From Candidatus Pacearchaeota archaeon (GTDB taxonomy: Archaea; Nanobdellota; Nanobdellia; Pacearchaeales; GW2011-AR1), in NCBI GenBank assembly GCA_038885615.1, contig JAVZZP010000001.1, positions 198,646-262,645 on the forward strand: 64,000 bases of DNA, in the 5' to 3' direction. A program made the position numbers and the translations under genes. Below, piece after piece: positions 11,195 through 41,818 of this stretch; position 1 is the first letter of the stretch, and each line of letters starts with the position of its first letter. Below the pieces are notes generated by a model. That model did no database searches and was not told the origin of the DNA. It saw only the letters and a program-made list of their open reading frames with translations.

Positions 11195-12559
11195 CTAAAC
11201 CCTCACCAACTCCCAACTTTCTTTTTTATCTCGGATTTCCCAGCCAAGCAACTTTAATTTTTCACGAAGTTCGTCGGCTTTTTTCCAATCTTTTTCTTGA
11301 CGGGCTTTTTGCCTTTCCTCTGCAATTTTTTTTATCTCATCTGGAATTTGGATTTCTTCTTTTTCAAACAAACCCAAACCTAAAACCTCATCGAATTTTT
11401 TTATTGTCCAGAATTTTCCTTCTGCTTTTTCATCTCTTAAAAAGTCCCATAAGACAGAAAGAGCTTTCGGCGTGTTTAAATCATCGTTAATTGCTTTTTC
11501 AAATTTTTTTAAGTACTCTTCATTTATTTTTCCATCATCATTAAGTTGTAAGCATAGATTTTTTAATCTCTTATATGAGTTTTGAGAATTTTCTAAAATT
11601 TCCAAAGAAAAATCCAATGGTTTTCTATAAACAGCTGTTAAAACAAAATACCTATATGACAAAGGCAAAAAACCTTTTTCCTCTAATTCACTTAATGTGT
11701 AAAGTCCTCCTTTTGATTTTGAAACTTTTTCTCCTTTAAAGGTTAAAAAATTCTCGTGAAGCCAAAAACGAACGAACTTTTTTCCGGTAGCTGCCTCGCT
11801 TTGAGCAATCTCATTTGTGTGATGAACTGGAATATGATCAATGCCTCCTGTGTGAATGTCGATTGTTTCTCCAAGATATTTCATTGCCATTGCAGAACAC
11901 TCAATGTGCCAACCAGGGAAACCCAACCCCCAAGGAGATTCCCACTCTTGTTGTCTTAAGCCGGGTTTCTCAGAAAATTTCCATAAAGCAAAATCTGTTG
12001 GATTTCTTTTTTCTTTTAAATCAACTCTTTTTCCAGCTTGCAAACCTTCTTTCTTTAATCTAGCAAGTTTTCCGTAATTTTCAAATTTTGAACTGTCAAA
12101 ATAAATTCCATCTGAAGTCCTATAAGTAAAACCTCTTTCTTCGAGTTTTTTTATCAACTCAATCATTTCTTTTATGTGTTCTGTCGCCCAACTCCAAACA
12201 AAAGGCTCTTCGATATTAAGCTTCTTTAAATCTTCATGAAAAAGATTAAAATAATAATGAGTTATTTCTTTAGCTGTTTTTCCTTCTCGTTTAGCAGCTT
12301 TTTCAATTTTGTCCTCGCCTTCATCAGCATCGGAGGTTAAATGACCAACATCTGTAACATTTATGACTTTCTTGACTTGAAAACCATTAAACTTTAAAGT
12401 TCTTGAAAGAATATCCGAAAAAATATATGCCTTAAGATTCCCTATATGCTGATACCAATAAACAGTTGGCCCGCAAGTGTACATAGTAACGATCGGGGGA
12501 TTCAATGGCTTAAAAATTTCTTTCTTTCTCGTTAAAGTGTTATAAAGTTTGAGGGACAT
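11195..12559 (-). CDS. cysS: cysteinyl-tRNA synthetase
   Basis: HIGN motif ([10 protein letters not shown]), KMSKS motif (KVSKSKGG) and a CysRS-like anticodon-binding C-terminus. Ends with a genuine TAG stop. Confidence 0.9.
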
Positions 12560-12567
12560 AAGAAAGA

Positions 12568-13434
12568 TTAGATTTCTAGTATTTTAAATCTTCCCTCTGT
12601 TGCGCTACCAACATTGAAAACTTTTGATTTGCCTATTTTTGTTTCTCCGTGACTTTCGTGAATGTGGCCAGAGAAAACAAAATCCGGTTGAAATCTTTTT
12701 ATTATTTCTTTTTCAAGAAAAGAACCGTAATGTTTGCCTTTTGCAGGGCCTTTTTTTATTAAATCAAGTTTTGTTTTATAAGGGCAATTATGTGTTAAGA
12801 AAATTATTGGCTTTTTTGCTCTTTTCTGAATTTTTTTTGCTTTTCTGAATAATTTAATCAGTGCAACCTCTCTTCTTCTATATTCTATTTTTGCTTTAAC
12901 AAAATTAAAAAAAACAAGAATTTTTTCTTTGTTTGTTTTTGCCTCTTTTAAGGATTTTTTCAGAACATCTTTTGTTAAAATTCCAGGAGAAGTTGAACTT
13001 CCTCCTCCGACAAGAATAAAACTTTTTTCATTGATTAAACTAAAATCAACTAGTCTAAAATTTCCGTCATTGAGTTTTTTAAAAGAAAAATTTTTATCTT
13101 TTCTTTTTCCAACAATGTCGTATGGATAAGGACAAGGATCCCAATTTCCGTGAATAGCATAAATTTTTATGCCTAAACTCTTTAGTTTTTCAATAACTTC
13201 TTTTCCTCTTTCAAAGGAATTTTTTTCTATTTTTTCATATTTTTTTAAGATTTTTTCTGGAATTTCTTCTTCGTCTTTTCCATAAATATAATTAAAATAA
13301 AATTTTGCTGCCCCTTCACTTCCACAAAAATCTCCGAAAGATAAAATAAATTCTGGTTTTTCAGCTTGTATTTTTTTAATAATCTTTTTTGTTAATTCTC
13401 CATGAAAATCTCCTAAAACAAAAATTTTTGTCAT
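12568..13434 (-). CDS. calcineurin-like metallophosphoesterase
   Basis: GDFHG, GNWD and GHIHE motifs. Confidence 0.7.
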   Translation of the reverse strand: MTKIFVLGDFHGELTKKIIKKIQAEKPEFILSFGDFCGSEGAAKFYFNYIYGKDEEEIPEKILKKYEKIEKNSFERGKEVIEKLKSLGIKIYAIHGNWDPCPYPYDIVGKRKDKNFSFKKLNDGNFRLVDFSLINEKSFILVGGGSSTSPGILTKDVLKKSLKEAKTNKEKILVFFNFVKAKIEYRRREVALIKLFRKAKKIQKRAKKPIIFLTHNCPYKTKLDLIKKGPAKGKHYGSFLEKEIIKRFQPDFVFSGHIHESHGETKIGKSKVFNVGSATEGRFKILEI

Positions 13435-13463
13435 AAAAAATAGAGCAAAAATAGGTTTAAAAG

Positions 13464-14021
13464 TTAATCTCTAAACTTTACATAAACTTGTGTTGTTGCA
13501 TAATTATTTTCGTTTGCTTTGACATCAATTCTAAATCTAACTGTACAGAGAGGATCACCCTCTCCTGTTTCAAATAAAATAACTATCGGCTCATTTTCTC
13601 CTGTAGGAATTGGAATATCTTCTCCTCTATAAGATTCTGCTACAAAAAGATTTAATATGTCTTCTTTAGAAACACCACAATCATTTTCTACATTCGAAAC
13701 AGGAGTTATCTCATAAGAAAAAAGAGCATTTTTTGCCTGGCTTCCTGAAAGTTTATTTTTTATTCCTATAGCAAAACCTTCTTGTTTTCCTTGTCTAACC
13801 TCTATTTGTTTTGTTGAAGGATAAATAACAATTTTTTTATCTTCTCCAAAAAGTTTATTTATTTCATTAGAAACTTGGTCATTTAAGCCAGACACTGCTC
13901 TTTGACTACCAAAAAAAATATTTCTCACAAGCATAATACCTAAAACAAGCATTACCATTGCTATAACAACTATAACAATCGTCCCGATAGAAAGTTCCAT
14001 TGCTGCTTTTTTAGTTTTCAT
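13464..14021 (-). CDS. archaeal type IV pilin-like protein (class III signal peptide)
   Basis: N-terminus KKAAMELSIGTIVIVVIAMVMLVLG resembles archaeal prepilin signals (GIGTLIVFIAMV-type). Confidence 0.45.
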   Translation of the reverse strand: MKTKKAAMELSIGTIVIVVIAMVMLVLGIMLVRNIFFGSQRAVSGLNDQVSNEINKLFGEDKKIVIYPSTKQIEVRQGKQEGFAIGIKNKLSGSQAKNALFSYEITPVSNVENDCGVSKEDILNLFVAESYRGEDIPIPTGENEPIVILFETGEGDPLCTVRFRIDVKANENNYATTQVYVKFRD

Positions 14022-35749: not shown

Positions 35750-37299
35750 TAGCCCTCCATTTGTCTAACTAAATCGGAAAAGGCAGGCCTTGTTATTAAA
35801 ACTCCTACTGAAATTCCTATTAAGGTTGTAATTGCGAAACCCTTAAGCAATCCTGCCGAAACAGCACCAATACCTATAAATGTTAGGGCTCCTGTCAAAG
35901 GAAGCAAGGCAACGGCTGTTGTTGAAAACGAGCAAATAATAATAAAAAGAGCTTTTTTGATTTTTTCTTTAATTGTTTCTTCTTTAACTTTTGCTTCGTC
36001 CAAAATAACGATCATACTGTCAATTCCTGTACCTATAGTGGCTAAAATACCTGCAATAGAAGGCAAGTCAAGATTCCAATTTATTAAAGCAGCTATTCCC
36101 AAAATAATTATTATTTCTGATACTAAAAATAAGAGCATCAACAAAGACTGCTTTATTTTTCTATATCTAACGAAAATAATTAAGCCAACTGCTAAGAAAG
36201 CAAAAAAACCGGCAATTAGAATTTGTTTTAAAAAATCGTTTCCCAATCTTGAGGATATTCTATCTAACTTAACAATTTCTAGTTTAAAAGGCAGACTTCC
36301 TGTAATTAAAACTGTTTGAAGCTTTTTCATTTGTTTTTCTGCTTCTTTATAGGCTTCTTCTCTTGTTGTTCCAGAACCAGAACCAGAAATTTGAACTTGG
36401 GTTGTTTCTCTTCCTCGCAAATCTGCAGCAATAGACAAAGAATCTGTTAATTGGTCATCTAAATAAAAGTCAATTGTCTTAGACAAATATCTTCCACCGG
36501 ATGAAGTATTAATCTCTAGGTTTTTTGTGACTTCTGCAAATCTTTCTGCTGCTTTCTTGCTTAACGAAATAGAAAACGCAAAATTGCAAACCTCCAAATT
36601 CCCTGATTTGAAGCATTCCTTTATGCCAGAATCTTTTCCAGTTCTTCCAACATAAGTTATATCCTCATTTCCTCCAATAAAAACAGTTTCATTGCCAATT
36701 TTTGCTTCAAATTTTCCTTGCTTAGCAATCAATTCTTCTAAGTCGGAAGGAGAGGAACCTGCAATTTCAACCAACATAAAATTATTTCTATCAAAATCTG
36801 AAACTTTTCTTATAGAAACATCTGTTAAACCATAAACATTAAATCTTTCTTGAGAAACTGCGATTAAATCATCTAGTTGCTGTTCTGAAAGAGGAACATC
36901 TGCCTTGACTAAAGCTCTTGCTCCACCCTGAATATCTAAACCTGTTTTTATTCTTGTTTTTGGTAGATCTGAAAAAGTTGCTTTCTTAAAATCCTCAATA
37001 GAGAATTCCCCGATAATCATTTTTTCTTCAGTCTTTATTTCAAATCGGGAATTGTTACTAAAAGAATAAATTATTGAGTTAAAATCATCTAGAGAGCTTA
37101 TTTTCTTTCCATTTATTTCAATAATTTTAGTTCCGACTCTCAATCCCTGTTCATAAAGAGAAGAATTTTTTTCTAGAGAACTAACTAAAACACCTTTTTC
37201 TAAAAAAAGAGGGGGAATTGAGAATATTGAAATTAAAGAAAGCAAAGTTACAACGATAACAAACCAAACCTTAAATGTGATTTTCATTTTTTTCAACAA
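35749..37299 (-). CDS. secD: protein-export membrane protein SecD
   Basis: GLDIQGG signature, a large first periplasmic domain and C-terminal TM bundle (GTGIDSMIVILD). Confidence 0.7.
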   Translation of the reverse strand: MLKKMKITFKVWFVIVVTLLSLISIFSIPPLFLEKGVLVSSLEKNSSLYEQGLRVGTKIIEINGKKISSLDDFNSIIYSFSNNSRFEIKTEEKMIIGEFSIEDFKKATFSDLPKTRIKTGLDIQGGARALVKADVPLSEQQLDDLIAVSQERFNVYGLTDVSIRKVSDFDRNNFMLVEIAGSSPSDLEELIAKQGKFEAKIGNETVFIGGNEDITYVGRTGKDSGIKECFKSGNLEVCNFAFSISLSKKAAERFAEVTKNLEINTSSGGRYLSKTIDFYLDDQLTDSLSIAADLRGRETTQVQISGSGSGTTREEAYKEAEKQMKKLQTVLITGSLPFKLEIVKLDRISSRLGNDFLKQILIAGFFAFLAVGLIIFVRYRKIKQSLLMLLFLVSEIIIILGIAALINWNLDLPSIAGILATIGTGIDSMIVILDEAKVKEETIKEKIKKALFIIICSFSTTAVALLPLTGALTFIGIGAVSAGLLKGFAITTLIGISVGVLITRPAFSDLVRQMEG

Positions 37300-38302
37300 A
37301 CCATTTAATTAATGAAGCATTAAAAACCCATGTATTAAAAATATCAAAGCAGAGGCCAATAATTAAAACAGTAAATATTTGATTCAAAACGCTTTGAAAT
37401 CTATAAACAAAAATTAGAGAAAAAACTATCGCTGCTAGAGAAGTAAAAGTCATAGCCATACCTGTTTTGAAAGCTTTAAAAATTTCTTCATTGACGGAGG
37501 TTTTTTTTCTTTTGAGAACTCTTGTAGTCAACAAAACATTTGTATCTACGGAATAACCAAGCAACATTAAAAAAGCAACTATGCCTGCTGTAGAAATTTT
37601 CATTTCCATTAAGTTTACTACAAACAGTGTTAAAATTATATCTGAAGCTGCAGCAAAAATAACTGCTATGGAGGGCATTGAAAATTTGTAATATATGACC
37701 ATTAAAAAGGCCGCTACCAAGAATAAAAATATTGCGAATACTCCAGAGGATTTAGAAGATGAAAAAGAAAATCTTACTAGAATAGCTAAAATAATTGTTA
37801 AAAAAACAGCTAAAAACTTAATTTTTTTACCCTTAGAGAAAATAAGAAAAACAACTAAAGACATTAAAAAAAAAGCTAAAATTAGGGAAGAAATAAGCTG
37901 ATTGTAAAAATTCTTGCTTAAAGAAGATGATGTTGTTTCTATTGAAGAGTTTTCTTGTGATAGTTTTTCACCTAAAAAAGATTCTAAAAGAGAAATCGTT
38001 TTGTTAGTATCTTTTTCTGCAACTGTTAAAATAATGTTACTTTTTTTGCCGGTGTTGTCCGTTATTGTTTTTATCTCAAAATCAGTAAATTCCTTTGAAA
38101 GAAAGTTTGAAAGATCTTTTTCATTTATCTCTGAAAAGAGAGTTATAGTTGTTCCCCCGGTCAGTGAAACATCCTTAAAAAATAAATCTCCTGTTTGAAA
38201 ATAGAAATAAAAAATATATCCCAAAGAAATAAAAAAGATTATTAGAGGCAAAAAAATAAATAACTTATAGTTGTTGTTATAAAACTTTCTGATTTTTTCC
38301 AT
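37271..38302 (-). CDS. secF: protein-export membrane protein SecF
   Basis: TM1, a periplasmic domain of about 110 aa and a 5-TM bundle. Overlaps secD by 29 nt. Confidence 0.7.
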   Translation of the reverse strand: MEKIRKFYNNNYKLFIFLPLIIFFISLGYIFYFYFQTGDLFFKDVSLTGGTTITLFSEINEKDLSNFLSKEFTDFEIKTITDNTGKKSNIILTVAEKDTNKTISLLESFLGEKLSQENSSIETTSSSLSKNFYNQLISSLILAFFLMSLVVFLIFSKGKKIKFLAVFLTIILAILVRFSFSSSKSSGVFAIFLFLVAAFLMVIYYKFSMPSIAVIFAAASDIILTLFVVNLMEMKISTAGIVAFLMLLGYSVDTNVLLTTRVLKRKKTSVNEEIFKAFKTGMAMTFTSLAAIVFSLIFVYRFQSVLNQIFTVLIIGLCFDIFNTWVFNASLIKWFVEKNENHI

Positions 38303-38340
38303 TAAAAAAGAAAATTAAATTAGTTTTTAAGTGTTTTGAA

Positions 38341-38411
38341 TGCGCGGGCCGGGATTCGAACCCGGGTCACAAGCTTGGAAGGCTAGTATTCTGCCACTGA
38401 ACTACCCACGC
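38341..38411 (-). tRNA. tRNA-Gly (anticodon UCC)
   Basis: Reverse complement GCGUGGGUAGUUCAGUGGCAGAAUACUAGCCUUCCAAGCUUGUGACCCGGGUUCGAAUCCCGGCCCGCGCA folds as a cloverleaf; anticodon loop CUUCCAA. One U-U mismatch in the anticodon stem. Confidence 0.8.
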
Positions 38412-38498
38412 ATATTTTTTATTTATAAAATTAAGTTTTAAACCTTGCGTTTGCATAAAAGATAAGTTTTTATAGGATAAATTTTAAAAAAAATTAAC

Positions 38499-38630
38499 GA
38501 GGGGATGCCGGAGTGGCCAAACGGGCAGGACTTAAGAAGCTCTCTTTAAAAAGAGACCTTGGAGAGAAACCAAGGAAATTAAGATATCCTGTGGCTTTTG
38601 CCTGCGGGGGTTCGAATCCTCCTCCCCTCA
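38499..38630 (+). tRNA. tRNA-Leu (anticodon UAA), class II, with 49-nt intron at the canonical 37/38 position (about 38537-38585)
   Basis: Acceptor GAGGGGA/UCCCCUC, 3-bp D-stem, anticodon arm CAGGA-CUUAAG[intron]A-UCCUG, long variable arm UGGCUUUUGCCUGC, T-arm GGGGG-UUCGAAU-CCUCC, discriminator A. The intron contains the hairpin ccttgg-agagaaa-ccaagg. Confidence 0.8.
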
Positions 38631-38713
38631 TTGAGATTCTCACACTTCGGTTTTTACAAACCTGCGGGCTCAGAAAACAAGTTTTCTGGGACTTCCATTC
38701 TTACAATGTAAGT

Positions 38714-38734
38714 GTTCGAATCCTCTTCCCATCA
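38714..38734 (+). repeat. degenerate direct repeat of the tRNA-Leu 3' end (19/21 nt)
   Basis: gttcgaatcctcttcccatca versus gttcgaatcctcctcccctca at 38610-38630; the intervening 83 nt do not fold as a tRNA. Confidence 0.6.
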
Positions 38735-38833
38735 TAAAAGCAAAGCTTTAAAAACAAAATTTCAAATAAAAAATAACCTGCGAGCTAACGCGTTTAGTAG
38801 GTAAAACTGCTTCTCGTTAGCTTATATTAAAAA

Positions 38834-39205
38834 ATGAAACAAAACATATCAAAAACAAAAATTGAAAAAAAAGCTTCAAAAAAAACAAACAAAGAATTAG
38901 CTAAGCTGATAAACTCTTTAAAAAAGATTAATCTTGAATATGCTCATTATTTATCTTTTCCAAAAAGAAAAAGAATAGAAAAGAACCTTGATGAGATAGA
39001 AAAAGAAACAAAAGAAAATGATGTTGTCTTTGTCCCAGGAAAAGTTTTAAGTAGCGGAGAGTTGAATAAAAAAATAAAAATTATAGCTTGGAAATTTTCA
39101 GAAAAAGCTGTTGAAAAAATAAAAAAATCTAAAAGTGAAGCTATTTTGATAGAAGAAGAATTAAAGAAAAATCCACAATTAAAAGGAGTTAAATTATTAA
39201 AATGA
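38834..39205 (+). CDS. rpl18e: ribosomal protein L18e
   Basis: Basic 123-aa protein at the conserved position upstream of rpl13-rps9. Confidence 0.7.
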   Translation: MKQNISKTKIEKKASKKTNKELAKLINSLKKINLEYAHYLSFPKRKRIEKNLDEIEKETKENDVVFVPGKVLSSGELNKKIKIIAWKFSEKAVEKIKKSKSEAILIEEELKKNPQLKGVKLLK

Positions 39206-40505: not shown

Positions 40506-41315
40506 ATGGGGAAGATAGAATATAAACCAAGAAGAATTGATGATTTATTAATTGTGGAAGGATTATGCGGAATTGCTCAACTAGATAAAGAACCAAGTAC
40601 AAGAAACACCTGGTTTGTTGTTGGGGGAATTGCGACTCAGAGTTATCTTCCTAGTAGATGCAGAAGACCTACTTCCGATATAGATTTGGCTTTATTAACA
40701 CCTCTAAGTTATTCAGATTTTAAAAAATATTCAAAACCTGTAAGAGAATATTTAGGTGATAAGGGATTTAATGTAGAAGAAAAAAAGGGACATAATGCCT
40801 ATATGATAATATATACTCAAGAAGAACAAAGAGGAGTGATAGAGTTTTCTAGAAGAAATAAAAAAAAGATTTCAAAAGTTATTAAAAGATTAGAAGACGA
40901 ATTAGAAAATTCTAGAGTAAAAATAGTAGAAGGAAGAAATGAAAGTTATCGCGTTTCTAGTCCTGAAGACATTGTTTCTCCAAAAATAGTAAGGGGAATA
41001 AGAGCGCTAAAAGAATATGAGGAACTAGAAGCATATCTAAAGAATGCTTATCCTATAACCGATGATGGAATAGAAAGAGATTTAAGAAAAATAGATGAGA
41101 TAAGGGAAGAGGCAAGAATGTTAAATGATGATTTGAGTTTAGTTACTAGATTAAGGTTCGCAGCAGATGTATATGATATAAAGGTTCTGTCAGAATTAAC
41201 AGGATTTAATATAGAATATTTAAAAAAATCTATGAGTAGATGGGATTCTCTTCAAGAAGATTCCCCTGAAAAAAGAAAAATAATTAGTTGCCTTTTGCCT
41301 TTTTTAGATTTTTAA
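40506..41315 (+). CDS. AbiEii/DUF1814-like nucleotidyltransferase
   Basis: VVGGIATQSYLPSRCRRPTSDIDLAL (GG...R.TSDIDL motif) in a 269-aa protein, divergent from the MNT-like gene. Confidence 0.45.
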   Translation: MGKIEYKPRRIDDLLIVEGLCGIAQLDKEPSTRNTWFVVGGIATQSYLPSRCRRPTSDIDLALLTPLSYSDFKKYSKPVREYLGDKGFNVEEKKGHNAYMIIYTQEEQRGVIEFSRRNKKKISKVIKRLEDELENSRVKIVEGRNESYRVSSPEDIVSPKIVRGIRALKEYEELEAYLKNAYPITDDGIERDLRKIDEIREEARMLNDDLSLVTRLRFAADVYDIKVLSELTGFNIEYLKKSMSRWDSLQEDSPEKRKIISCLLPFLDF

Positions 41316-41818
41316 ATCTTTCTCTGCACAGCATAAAAAATTTCTGGAGAAATTAAAGGCTTATGGTTTCCTTTAAAGATTTTTCCTCCGAATTTTATTT
41401 CTCCGAGATAAGTTCTATTTGTTAATATTTTTTTTAGACCATTAACTGAAAGAGAATATTTTTTTGCGAGAGCATTGAGAGAAATATCTGTTTCCAAGAA
41501 TTCTTTAAAAATTGAGTGAACCTTTGACGAATCTTGGTTTTCGACTAAATTTCCATCGATTAAATCATAGCCAAGAGGTGCTCTGGACATTATTTTGCCG
41601 CATTCTGCTTTTTTTTCCATTCCTTTCTTTTGAGAATCGCCAAATTTTTGGCCGTATTTTTTAAAAGTTTCAAGATTTTTCCAATCAACTTTTTCTTCTG
41701 TATATCTATAAAAGTCTTCGGTATTTTTTGGAGCAAAAAAAGCACAAAAAGAACAAAGTTTTTTCCCAAATATTTCTTTTTCCTTAATATCTATATACCC
41801 GCATTTTTCACAAACCAT
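41312..41818 (-). CDS. serine-recombinase Recombinase-domain protein lacking the catalytic resolvase domain; N-terminal Zn ribbon
   Basis: APLGYDLIDGNLVENQDSSKVHSIFKEF...ILTNRTYLGEIKFGGKIFKGNHKPLISPEIFYAVQ matches the PF07508-type recombinase domain. N-terminal CxxC...CxxC; no catalytic Ser region. Confidence 0.55.
   Translation of the reverse strand: MVCEKCGYIDIKEKEIFGKKLCSFCAFFAPKNTEDFYRYTEEKVDWKNLETFKKYGQKFGDSQKKGMEKKAECGKIMSRAPLGYDLIDGNLVENQDSSKVHSIFKEFLETDISLNALAKKYSLSVNGLKKILTNRTYLGEIKFGGKIFKGNHKPLISPEIFYAVQRKI

Follow-up and report, generated by a model that had tools for sequence, protein, structure and literature searches.

A conserved, repeat-bounded non-coding cassette at the 3′ end of a Pacearchaeota tRNA-Leu(UAA) gene

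The window analysed here is a 64,000-nucleotide stretch of Candidatus Pacearchaeota archaeon DNA (assembly GCA_038885615.1, contig JAVZZP010000001.1, positions 198,646 to 262,645), AT-rich with a GC content of ~29%, and our subject is the sequence directly 3′ of its tRNA-Leu(UAA) gene. This gene is followed by a non-coding cassette of ~105 nt (38631-38735), which consists of a tRNA-Leu-type trailer, two nearly invariant hairpins and a third one, and a 22-nt partial copy of the tRNA 3′ end. Alignment with related loci has shown that the cassette, where it is present, is conserved far above the neutral rate. It is a duplication of a tRNA 3′ end, which is of a known kind, with a strongly conserved interior that is unlike the published cases. 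We favour, tentatively, the reading that the cassette is a structured RNA transcribed with tRNA-Leu as its 3′ spacer; the alignments and predicted folds make this plausible, if short of probable. Partial tRNA copies beside tRNA genes are routinely taken for dead integration scars. Here, the copy and the 83 nt that separate it from the tRNA are among the most conserved non-coding sequence of the locus, yet they have been cleanly lost from whole lineages.

The repeat-bounded cassette and its conservation

A preliminary description of this region had reported an imperfect 21-nt repeat of the tRNA 3′ end, 83 nt apart, and this is what we find: the copies are GTTCGAATCCTCCTCCCCTCA at 38610-38630 and GTTCGAATCCTCTTCCCATCA at 38714-38734, with 38631-38713 between them. 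The repeat extends by one base to 22 nt, 20 of which are identical (GTTCGAATCCTCCTCCCCTCAT at 38610-38631, GTTCGAATCCTCTTCCCATCAT at 38714-38735), and spans G53, the T-loop, the 3′ strand of the T-stem, the 3′ strand of the acceptor stem, A73 and the base after it. Against the 5′ acceptor strand GAGGGGA, copy 1 has no mispair, and copy 2 would have a G3.A70 mismatch. The repeat sequence has only two matches in the 64 kb and none in 100 shuffles. The window's other tRNAs have no partial copies in the window, and no second partial tRNA copy was found in the related loci L009 and L006. The features of the cassette and of the adjoining tRNA end are as follows, all on the + strand.

38610-38631, +: direct repeat copy 1, part of the functional tRNA (repeat search)
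38631-38661, +: module 1, tRNA-Leu trailer TTGAGATTCTCACACTTCGGTTTTTACAAAC, with a T5 run at 38651-38655 inside; present in L008 and L043
38649-38662, +: hairpin 1, GGTTT-TTAC-AAACC (folds); outer pair broken in L043
38667-38702, +: 36-nt block GGCTCAGAAAACAAGTTTTCTGGGACTTCCATTCTT, 36/36 identical between window and L043, two differences in L008 (alignments)
38669-38690, +: hairpin 2, CTCAGAAAA-CAAG-TTTTCTGGG, with an invariant core 8-bp palindrome (folds)
38691-38713, +: hairpin 3, ACTT-C-CATT-loop-AATG-T-AAGT (folds); stem kept, loop variable in sequence and length
38714-38735, +: direct repeat copy 2, partial non-functional copy of the tRNA 3′ end (repeat search, folds, alignments)

In the window, tRNA-Leu (+) lies between SecD, SecF and tRNA-Gly(UCC) on the minus strand and the L18e-L13-S9 operon on the plus strand. 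The L18e protein has 100% identity to one from a Pacearchaeota metagenome-assembled genome. Related loci were retrieved via homologues of L18e and SecF and labelled L001, L004, L006, L008, L009, L043, L044 and so on. L009 and L043 come from the same sample. The L008 contig begins inside the variable arm of tRNA-Leu, and the SecF of its lineage is likely to be on contig L042. The loci that bear on the cassette are listed with their amino-acid identities to the window.

L001 (SecF 71%): SecF, tRNA-Gly, tRNA-Leu(UAA) and L18e as in the window; no intron; no cassette
L004 (SecF 67%): SecF, tRNA-Gly, tRNA-Leu(UAA) and L18e as in the window; no intron; no cassette
L044, outgroup (SecF 55%): SecF, tRNA-Gly, tRNA-Leu(UAA); no intron; no cassette
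L008, sister lineage (L18e 89%, SecF on L042 87%): cassette present, distal copy degenerate
L043 (SecF 69%): SecF, tRNA-Gly, tRNA-Leu(UAA), cassette, tRNA-Arg(CCU); no intron; cassette complete

In L001 and L004 the tRNA joins directly the flank that in the window comes after copy 2 (CATAAAAG.AAAG.TTTAAAAA), which makes a precise empty site. Judged from these alignments, what was inserted or lost is a 104-bp unit, and its limits are exactly those set by the repeat. All three full copies of the cassette lie at the same tRNA, tRNA-Leu(UAA), and the window holds a single copy. Since the L043 cassette is followed by tRNA-Arg and not by L18e, the cassette is tied to tRNA-Leu(UAA) rather than to the L18e operon downstream or its promoter. 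A covariance model run over the related loci picked up no full copy beyond these three and, in L009, just the first ~35 nt. The SecF tree has the form ((window, L042), (L043, L001)), L004. This leaves two histories for the cassette: presence in the ancestor of the group with two or more losses, or a single gain and a single loss. Its precise loss is most simply explained by recombination between both repeat copies. Because two related lineages have lost it, the cassette is dispensable.

All cassette comparisons rest on the three full copies (window, L043, L008). The identity between window and L043 is 89% for the cassette as a whole and 88% for its interior. For comparison, four-fold degenerate sites of SecF are 49% identical between the same two loci (n=78), and the promoter spacer between tRNA-Gly and tRNA-Leu is 63% identical. 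The binomial probability of the interior conservation is ~4e-14 against the four-fold sites and ~2e-7 against the promoter spacer. Conservation differs along the cassette: it is perfect in the centre and ~80% at the edges. Copy 2 itself is identical at 19 of 22 positions (GTTCGAATCCTCCTGCCATCAT in L043) with the same repeat boundaries, and both loci share a derived A (CCATCA). In L008 it is degenerate, reading GTTAGAGTCCTC-----CTCAT, with a 5-nt deletion in the acceptor strand and a T-loop that reads UUAGAGU. Given the 88% interior identity against comparators of 49% and 63%, the cassette is not a decaying scar.

These results change how the repeat is to be understood. The preliminary description had taken it for the footprint of an integrase-type insertion, a relic pair of left and right attachment sites (attL/attR) after loss of an element. 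What stands is that the repeat-bounded 104 bp form a discrete indel with empty sites in L001, L004 and L044; the relic part does not agree with the conservation of the interior. Its remark that no element remains between the repeats was misleading, as the 83 nt are conserved sequence and not junk. The downstream copy belongs to a predicted structure that is conserved in relatives, which the same description had itself named as counting against its reading.

Predicted structure and possible function

The cassette is predicted to be closed by a helix between GAUUC (38635-38639) and GAAUC (38718-38722), extended by two more pairs. This closing helix and hairpins 1-3 are predicted in all three copies, with 85 of 88 cells paired across the copies on the + strand (96.6%) and 82 of 88 on the − strand. 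Five one-sided changes preserve pairing as G.U. In hairpin 1, the substitutions in L008 (U-A to U.G) and L009 (G-C to G.U) keep the + strand pairs. From the folds, if the T-loop-like part of copy 2 has a role at all, it is to supply one strand of the closing helix rather than to form a T-loop. In L043 a T5 run comes directly after the cassette, which fits a transcript made up of the tRNA and the cassette.

Module 1 has a homologue after tRNA-Leu(AAG) in L009, identical at 27 of 30 positions, and a weaker one after tRNA-Leu(UAG) in L006 (p ~0.002). It was not found after other tRNAs of the related loci. In these few genomes, module 1 looks like the native trailer of the clade's tRNA-Leu genes. 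The trailer follows the complete tRNA and not the distal copy, so the arrangement departs from the classical attL/attR layout.

In the reading that we favour, transcription from the tRNA promoter would run on into the cassette as a 3′ external spacer, which tRNase Z, the tRNA 3′-end nuclease, would free by cutting after A73. The released cassette would fold into a small RNA with several hairpins, in which the tRNA-like end supplies the 3′ strand of the closing helix (GAUUC/GAAUC) and, beyond it, a C/U-rich tail left single-stranded. Its likeness to a tRNA 3′ end would record how it arose, by partial duplication or recombination at the 3′ end of tRNA-Leu, rather than mark a working part of a tRNA, and the repeat would serve as a substrate for clean loss of the cassette.

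Several observations count against a structured spacer RNA. No pair among the three sequences shows a two-sided compensatory change, and the folding z-scores are weak (-1.0 to -2.2). The cassette is near-palindromic, and the covariance model scores the reverse strand at 25-30 bits, which makes a role of the minus strand or of the DNA itself conceivable. In the window and in L008, the T5 run at 38651-38655 within hairpin 1 could end archaeal transcription before hairpins 2 and 3 are made. Rfam 15 gave no match on 38631-38735 at E<=10. Finally, the window and L008 cassettes are 80% identical, which is below the 89% of L043, although L008 is nearer by SecF (87% at the amino-acid level); this suggests either relaxed constraint in L008 or a non-vertical history.

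A functional RNA from a tRNA 3′ spacer has a reported counterpart in Escherichia coli, where 3′ETS-leuZ is said to act as a sponge for small RNAs and to depend on Hfq and RNase E. Like it, the cassette is conserved directly 3′ of a tRNA-Leu gene, lacks its own promoter, and is proposed to be released by tRNA 3′ processing. The two differ in that 3′ETS-leuZ is bacterial and has no counterpart of the tRNA-like 3′ segment; no homology between them is known. If it is a processed RNA, the cassette would be an archaeal counterpart of the functional tRNA 3′-spacer RNAs of bacteria, in a group whose genomes are very small and from which hardly any small RNA has been characterised.

It is also possible, if doubtful, that the locus holds an undescribed tRNA-linked element of Pacearchaeota whose 3′ end mimics a T-loop and acceptor strand. 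Such an element could be a processed small RNA that mimics tRNA, for instance by engaging or titrating proteins that process tRNA ends or bind tRNA, or else a mini-cassette between recombination sites that carries no gene and is able to excise precisely. For annotators, the locus is a warning that the distal fragment should not be called a tRNA or pseudo-tRNA.

Some further resemblances were looked at and set aside. The trailer sequence CACUUCGGU (38643-38651) is complementary to GCCGGAGUG in the D-arm of tRNA-Leu (38507-38515) over 9 bp, including two G.U pairs; this was dropped as probably due to chance, being weaker in L043 and L009. A derivation of the 83 nt by duplication and divergence, whether from the tRNA in either orientation or from its intron, was rejected, local alignments being non-significant (p 0.07-0.8). 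A match to CCTGCGGG and a hairpin resembling a variable arm were likewise dropped as probable chance. The likeness of AACCTGCGGGCT (38659) to AACCTGCGAGCT in the L18e leader was discarded, since by a rough estimate chance alone gives about one such 11/12 match in 600 nt; the motif also varies in L043 and L008. A C/D-box or H/ACA RNA was rejected as well, with no boxes seen by eye and no Rfam match.

Alternative explanations

The precise empty sites in L001, L004 and L044, together with a direct repeat that starts at G53, stops one base after A73 and is bounded alike in the window and in L043, are also what a miniature, non-autonomous mobile cassette would leave. This could be a mini-element between att sites that, in the manner of a cis-mobilisable element, depends on a tyrosine integrase acting in trans on tRNA-Leu 3′ ends; it could also be a derivative of a transposon or casposon with a target-site duplication and terminal inverted repeats. 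Its conservation would then come from selection on the recombination sites or from recent spread, and not from usefulness to the host. The patchy distribution, which does not track the SecF tree, would fit, as would the imperfect inverted repeat at the cassette ends (GAGATTCTCACACTT at 38635-38647, AAGTGTTCGAATCCTC at 38710-38722), the similar left end that adjoins another tRNA-Leu gene in L009, and the use of tRNA-Leu 3′ ends by archaeal integrases and casposons (PMC5495485, PMC4779613, PMC9897764). Several features nevertheless make mobility unlikely. Neither an integrase nor a Cas1 gene lies between or beside the repeats, where the neighbours are SecF, tRNA-Gly and L18e/L13/S9; the sole recombinase-like open reading frame (41315-41818) is 2.6 kb away and is also present in the cassette-free L001 and L004. 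There is no conserved open reading frame within the 83 nt, nor any coding capacity at all between the repeats, and the casposon hallmarks Cas1 and family B polymerase are missing. The inverted repeat overlaps the direct repeat, a poor fit to a clean layout of target-site duplication and terminal inverted repeats. Scans of IMG/VR and blastn searches against phages and plasmids returned no match to the cassette, and when GTDB representative genomes and JGI metagenomes were scanned for exact patterns, the only hits were chance ones in bacterial coding DNA. Single occurrence in the window, the same tRNA for every full copy, a perfect centre with less conserved edges, and a native-looking module 1 that adjoins the complete tRNA rather than the distal copy also count against a mobile unit. 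An inert scar, in which an element entered tRNA-Leu and was mostly deleted, leaving attL/attR and 83 nt of junk to drift neutrally, would share the direct repeat and the empty sites; such tRNA fragments are well documented in archaea (PMC9897764), and the L008 copy does appear to be decaying. We consider it very unlikely, given an interior at 88% identity and a distal repeat at 19/22 where four-fold sites have fallen to 49%, the run of 36 identical nucleotides, and a native-looking trailer on the wrong side.

Conservation might instead act on the DNA. The most conserved part of the cassette is a perfect, invariant 8-2-8 palindrome, CAGAAAAC-AA-GTTTTCTG, which with its flank could be a putative binding site for a dimeric DNA-binding protein (such as one that regulates genes, organises the chromosome or takes part in recombination), which would make the hairpins incidental. 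Very high conservation without covariation and nearly equal pairing on both strands speak for such a site. A single site would leave unexplained the conservation over ~100 nt, including the stems of hairpin 3 with their variable loops; the downstream genes differ (the L18e operon in the window, tRNA-Arg in L043), which leaves no common target but the tRNA, and it is only in + strand RNA that the G.U substitutions of L008 and L009 preserve pairing. A DNA-level element seems decidedly improbable to us. Still less credible is a product of the minus strand, either an antisense RNA or a micro-ORF of 14-16 codons, MEVPENLFSEPAGL (38698 down to 38654). This frame is open in the window, L043 and L008, a conserved TTTTATGA motif lies ~38 nt upstream on the minus strand, and the changes in the terminal pair of L043 are G.U on that strand. 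More pairs are broken on the minus strand, though (82/88 paired against 85/88). Between window and L043 there is no synonymous change in the first 10 codons, though four-fold sites elsewhere are saturated, and between window and L008 there are two synonymous and three non-synonymous changes. This pattern of substitutions means that conservation acts at the nucleotide level and not at the coding level, and the micro-ORF was rejected as a coding sequence. The preliminary description had also suggested a duplicated 3′ exon, as in split or permuted tRNAs. As a working tRNA part, the copy could be the 3′ half of a split, trans-spliced tRNA, could offer tRNA-Leu an alternative 3′ exon, or could belong to a second tRNA interrupted by a non-canonical intron. 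The host belongs to DPANN, where split tRNAs are known, the T-loop, acceptor strand and A73 are kept between window and L043, and some Pacearchaeales genomes have no detectable tRNA-Val or tRNA-Trp (bioRxiv 10.64898/2026.05.13.725050). The five bases ahead of the T-loop in the copy do not make a T-stem (AAGUG/CCUCU forms three of five pairs in the window, AAGCG/CCUCC two of five in L043), and its acceptor strand UCCCAUC mismatches the tRNA-Leu 5′ strand GAGGGGA. The complementary GATGGGA (GATGGCA in L043) occurs in the 64-kb window and related loci only within coding regions or on the strand opposite the copy, and neither was a separate 5′ tRNA half with a complementary acceptor strand and trailer found there. 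A scan for bulge-helix-bulge (BHB) motifs found none flanking candidate introns and none conserved around 38631-38735, a stretch on which the Rfam tRNA model has no match at E<=10. With the L008 copy degenerate in both T-loop and acceptor strand, a second tRNA, split half or alternative exon was rejected; we would attach next to no weight to it.

None of the known parallels matches the cassette in full. Fragments of tRNA genes serve as attL/attR of PYG1 in the tRNA-Gln gene of Pyrococcus yayanosii, with a 44-bp repeat (PMC9897764), and the pTN3 integrase uses tRNA-Leu of Thermococcus, with ensuing rearrangements (PMC5495485). The cassette shares with them a direct repeat of a tRNA 3′ end, one copy of which completes the tRNA, precise empty sites in relatives, and tRNA-Leu as the target. 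It differs in having 83 nt between the copies instead of 9-23 kb, no integrase or cargo, a repeat of 22 nt as against the 44 bp of PYG1, a strongly conserved interior and fragment, and a native-looking trailer after the complete tRNA. Casposons and solo remnants of their terminal inverted repeats occur at the 3′ ends of tRNA-Leu genes in Methanosarcina, with target-site duplications of 14-35 bp (PMC4779613). Here the common points are the 3′-distal tRNA-Leu target, the direct duplication and the imperfect inverted repeats at the ends, whereas the cassette lacks Cas1 and family B polymerase, has an inverted repeat that overlaps the duplication, belongs to another phylum and is a single-copy unit of ~100 bp. 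The likeness to the split and permuted tRNAs of Nanoarchaeum equitans and other archaea is confined to the DPANN lineage and an isolated piece of T-loop and 3′ acceptor strand; the piece in the window has no T-stem, no complementary leader/trailer pair, no BHB and no 5′ half, and is degenerate in one relative.

If the cassette does excise, the circular junction would read …AATGTAAGTGTTCGAATCC…TCAT joined to TGAGATTCTCAC…. A mini mobile cassette would give the first indication that site-specific recombination takes place at tRNA-Leu genes of Pacearchaeota and might explain the breaks of synteny at tRNA-Leu in this clade. One such break separates L009 (69-1581), with the order RpoD, tRNA-Leu(AAG), L18e, from the window (37271-39205), L001 and L004, with SecF, tRNA-Gly, tRNA-Leu(UAA), L18e. 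The difference suggests a rearrangement with its breakpoint at the tRNA-Leu gene. The open reading frame at 41315-41818 (−) encodes 168 residues with a zinc-ribbon-like N-terminus and only the 'Recombinase' domain PF07508, and no catalytic resolvase domain. It is found at the same position in L001 and L004 and may be a domesticated or truncated fragment of a serine recombinase.

The tRNA-Leu gene, its intron and neighbouring genes

The tRNA-Leu(UAA) gene at 38499-38630 is an ordinary, functional gene. The Rfam tRNA model RF00005 matches this region on the + strand with 41.4 bits (gathering score 29) and a 52-nt insertion in the anticodon loop. The cloverleaf, with class II Leu features and a UAA anticodon, is recognised by the tRNA models (RF00005, ARAGORN). 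With introns enabled, ARAGORN reads tRNA-Leu(taa) with a 49-nt intron after position 37; with its default settings, which lack the intron option, it misses the gene. The intron had been placed at the canonical position of the anticodon loop in the preliminary description, and the ARAGORN result agrees, the site being the canonical 37/38.

38467-38474, +: TATA-like box TTTTTATA, centred ~28 nt before the mature 5′ end of tRNA-Leu (read from the sequence)
38499-38536, +: tRNA-Leu(UAA) exon 1, positions 1-37 (Rfam, 41.4 bits; ARAGORN with introns)
38537-38585, +: intron, 49 nt, position 37/38, two hairpins (ARAGORN with introns, BHB scan, minimum-energy fold)
38586-38630, +: tRNA-Leu(UAA) exon 2, position 38 to discriminator A73, CCA not encoded (Rfam model, ARAGORN)

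The internal hairpin CCTTGG/CCAAGG described earlier (38557-38562 / 38570-38575) is present in the minimum-energy fold. At the intron borders, where a BHB had been suggested as a check, the scan found a 6-bp outer helix (GCAGGA/UCCUGU), a 4-bp central helix (CUUA/UAAG) and a 3-nt bulge (AUA) that holds the 3′ splice site. The 5′ splice site AGA is in a loop, and the inner helix beyond it has only 1 bp in both the scan and the fold. The predicted splice motif is a relaxed form of BHB. It resembles the BHB of archaeal pre-tRNA introns in its 37/38 position, outer helix, central helix and 3′ bulge, and departs from it in the 1-bp inner helix and in the missing intron of the sampled orthologues. 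TTAAGA is seemingly repeated at both ends of the intron because the anticodon loop CUUAAG is self-complementary. The intron is missing from all sampled orthologues of tRNA-Leu(UAA) (L001, L004, L043, L044), which yield the same mature tRNA-Leu(UAA) sequence. It is an ordinary, recent gain specific to the lineage of the window and separate from the cassette.

Introns vary among close relatives: tRNA-Leu(UAA) has one only in the window, tRNA-Gly(UCC) only in L044 (1373-1462), and tRNA-Arg(CCU) has one of ~78 nt in L006 (1293-1446) and none in L043. The TATA-like box belongs to a block, AAAAGATAAGTTTTT, that is kept in L001, L004 and L043, and from the usual archaeal TATA spacing we infer that it is the tRNA-Leu promoter. 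This spacing implies that the transcript may have little or no leader; leaderless or near-leaderless transcription of tRNAs has been reported for Nanoarchaeum.

Downstream, the L18e-L13-S9 operon has a TATA box, TTTAAAAA (38747-38754), followed by a 5′ leader (region 38747-38833). The first ~26 nt of the leader, ACCTGCGAGCTAACGCGTTTAGTAGG (38777-38802), were compared in the window, L001, L004, L006, L008, L009, L019 and L020. They are almost invariant down to ~55-60% L18e identity and contain a CCUGC/GUAGG stem. The leader has no Rfam match and may be a ribosomal-protein leader or operator.

The minimum of the cumulative GC skew of the window lies at ~12000-14000, and the skew rises afterwards, which may mark a replication origin or terminus. 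A replication origin at the tRNA-Leu cassette was rejected, with the turning point at ~12-14 kb instead.

In L009 (919-1001), ARAGORN reads the tRNA-Leu upstream of L18e as having the anticodon AAG (loop CUAAGGA). A34 is unusual for Archaea, and this anticodon could be real, a sequencing error or the mark of a pseudogene. The cluster of tRNA-Gly, tRNA-Leu and tRNA-Arg(CCU) contains Leu(UAA) in L043 (2722-2804, −) and Leu(UAG) in L006 (957-1040, +). Their acceptor stems are identical and their bodies nearly so, and the difference looks like an anticodon switch at one locus.

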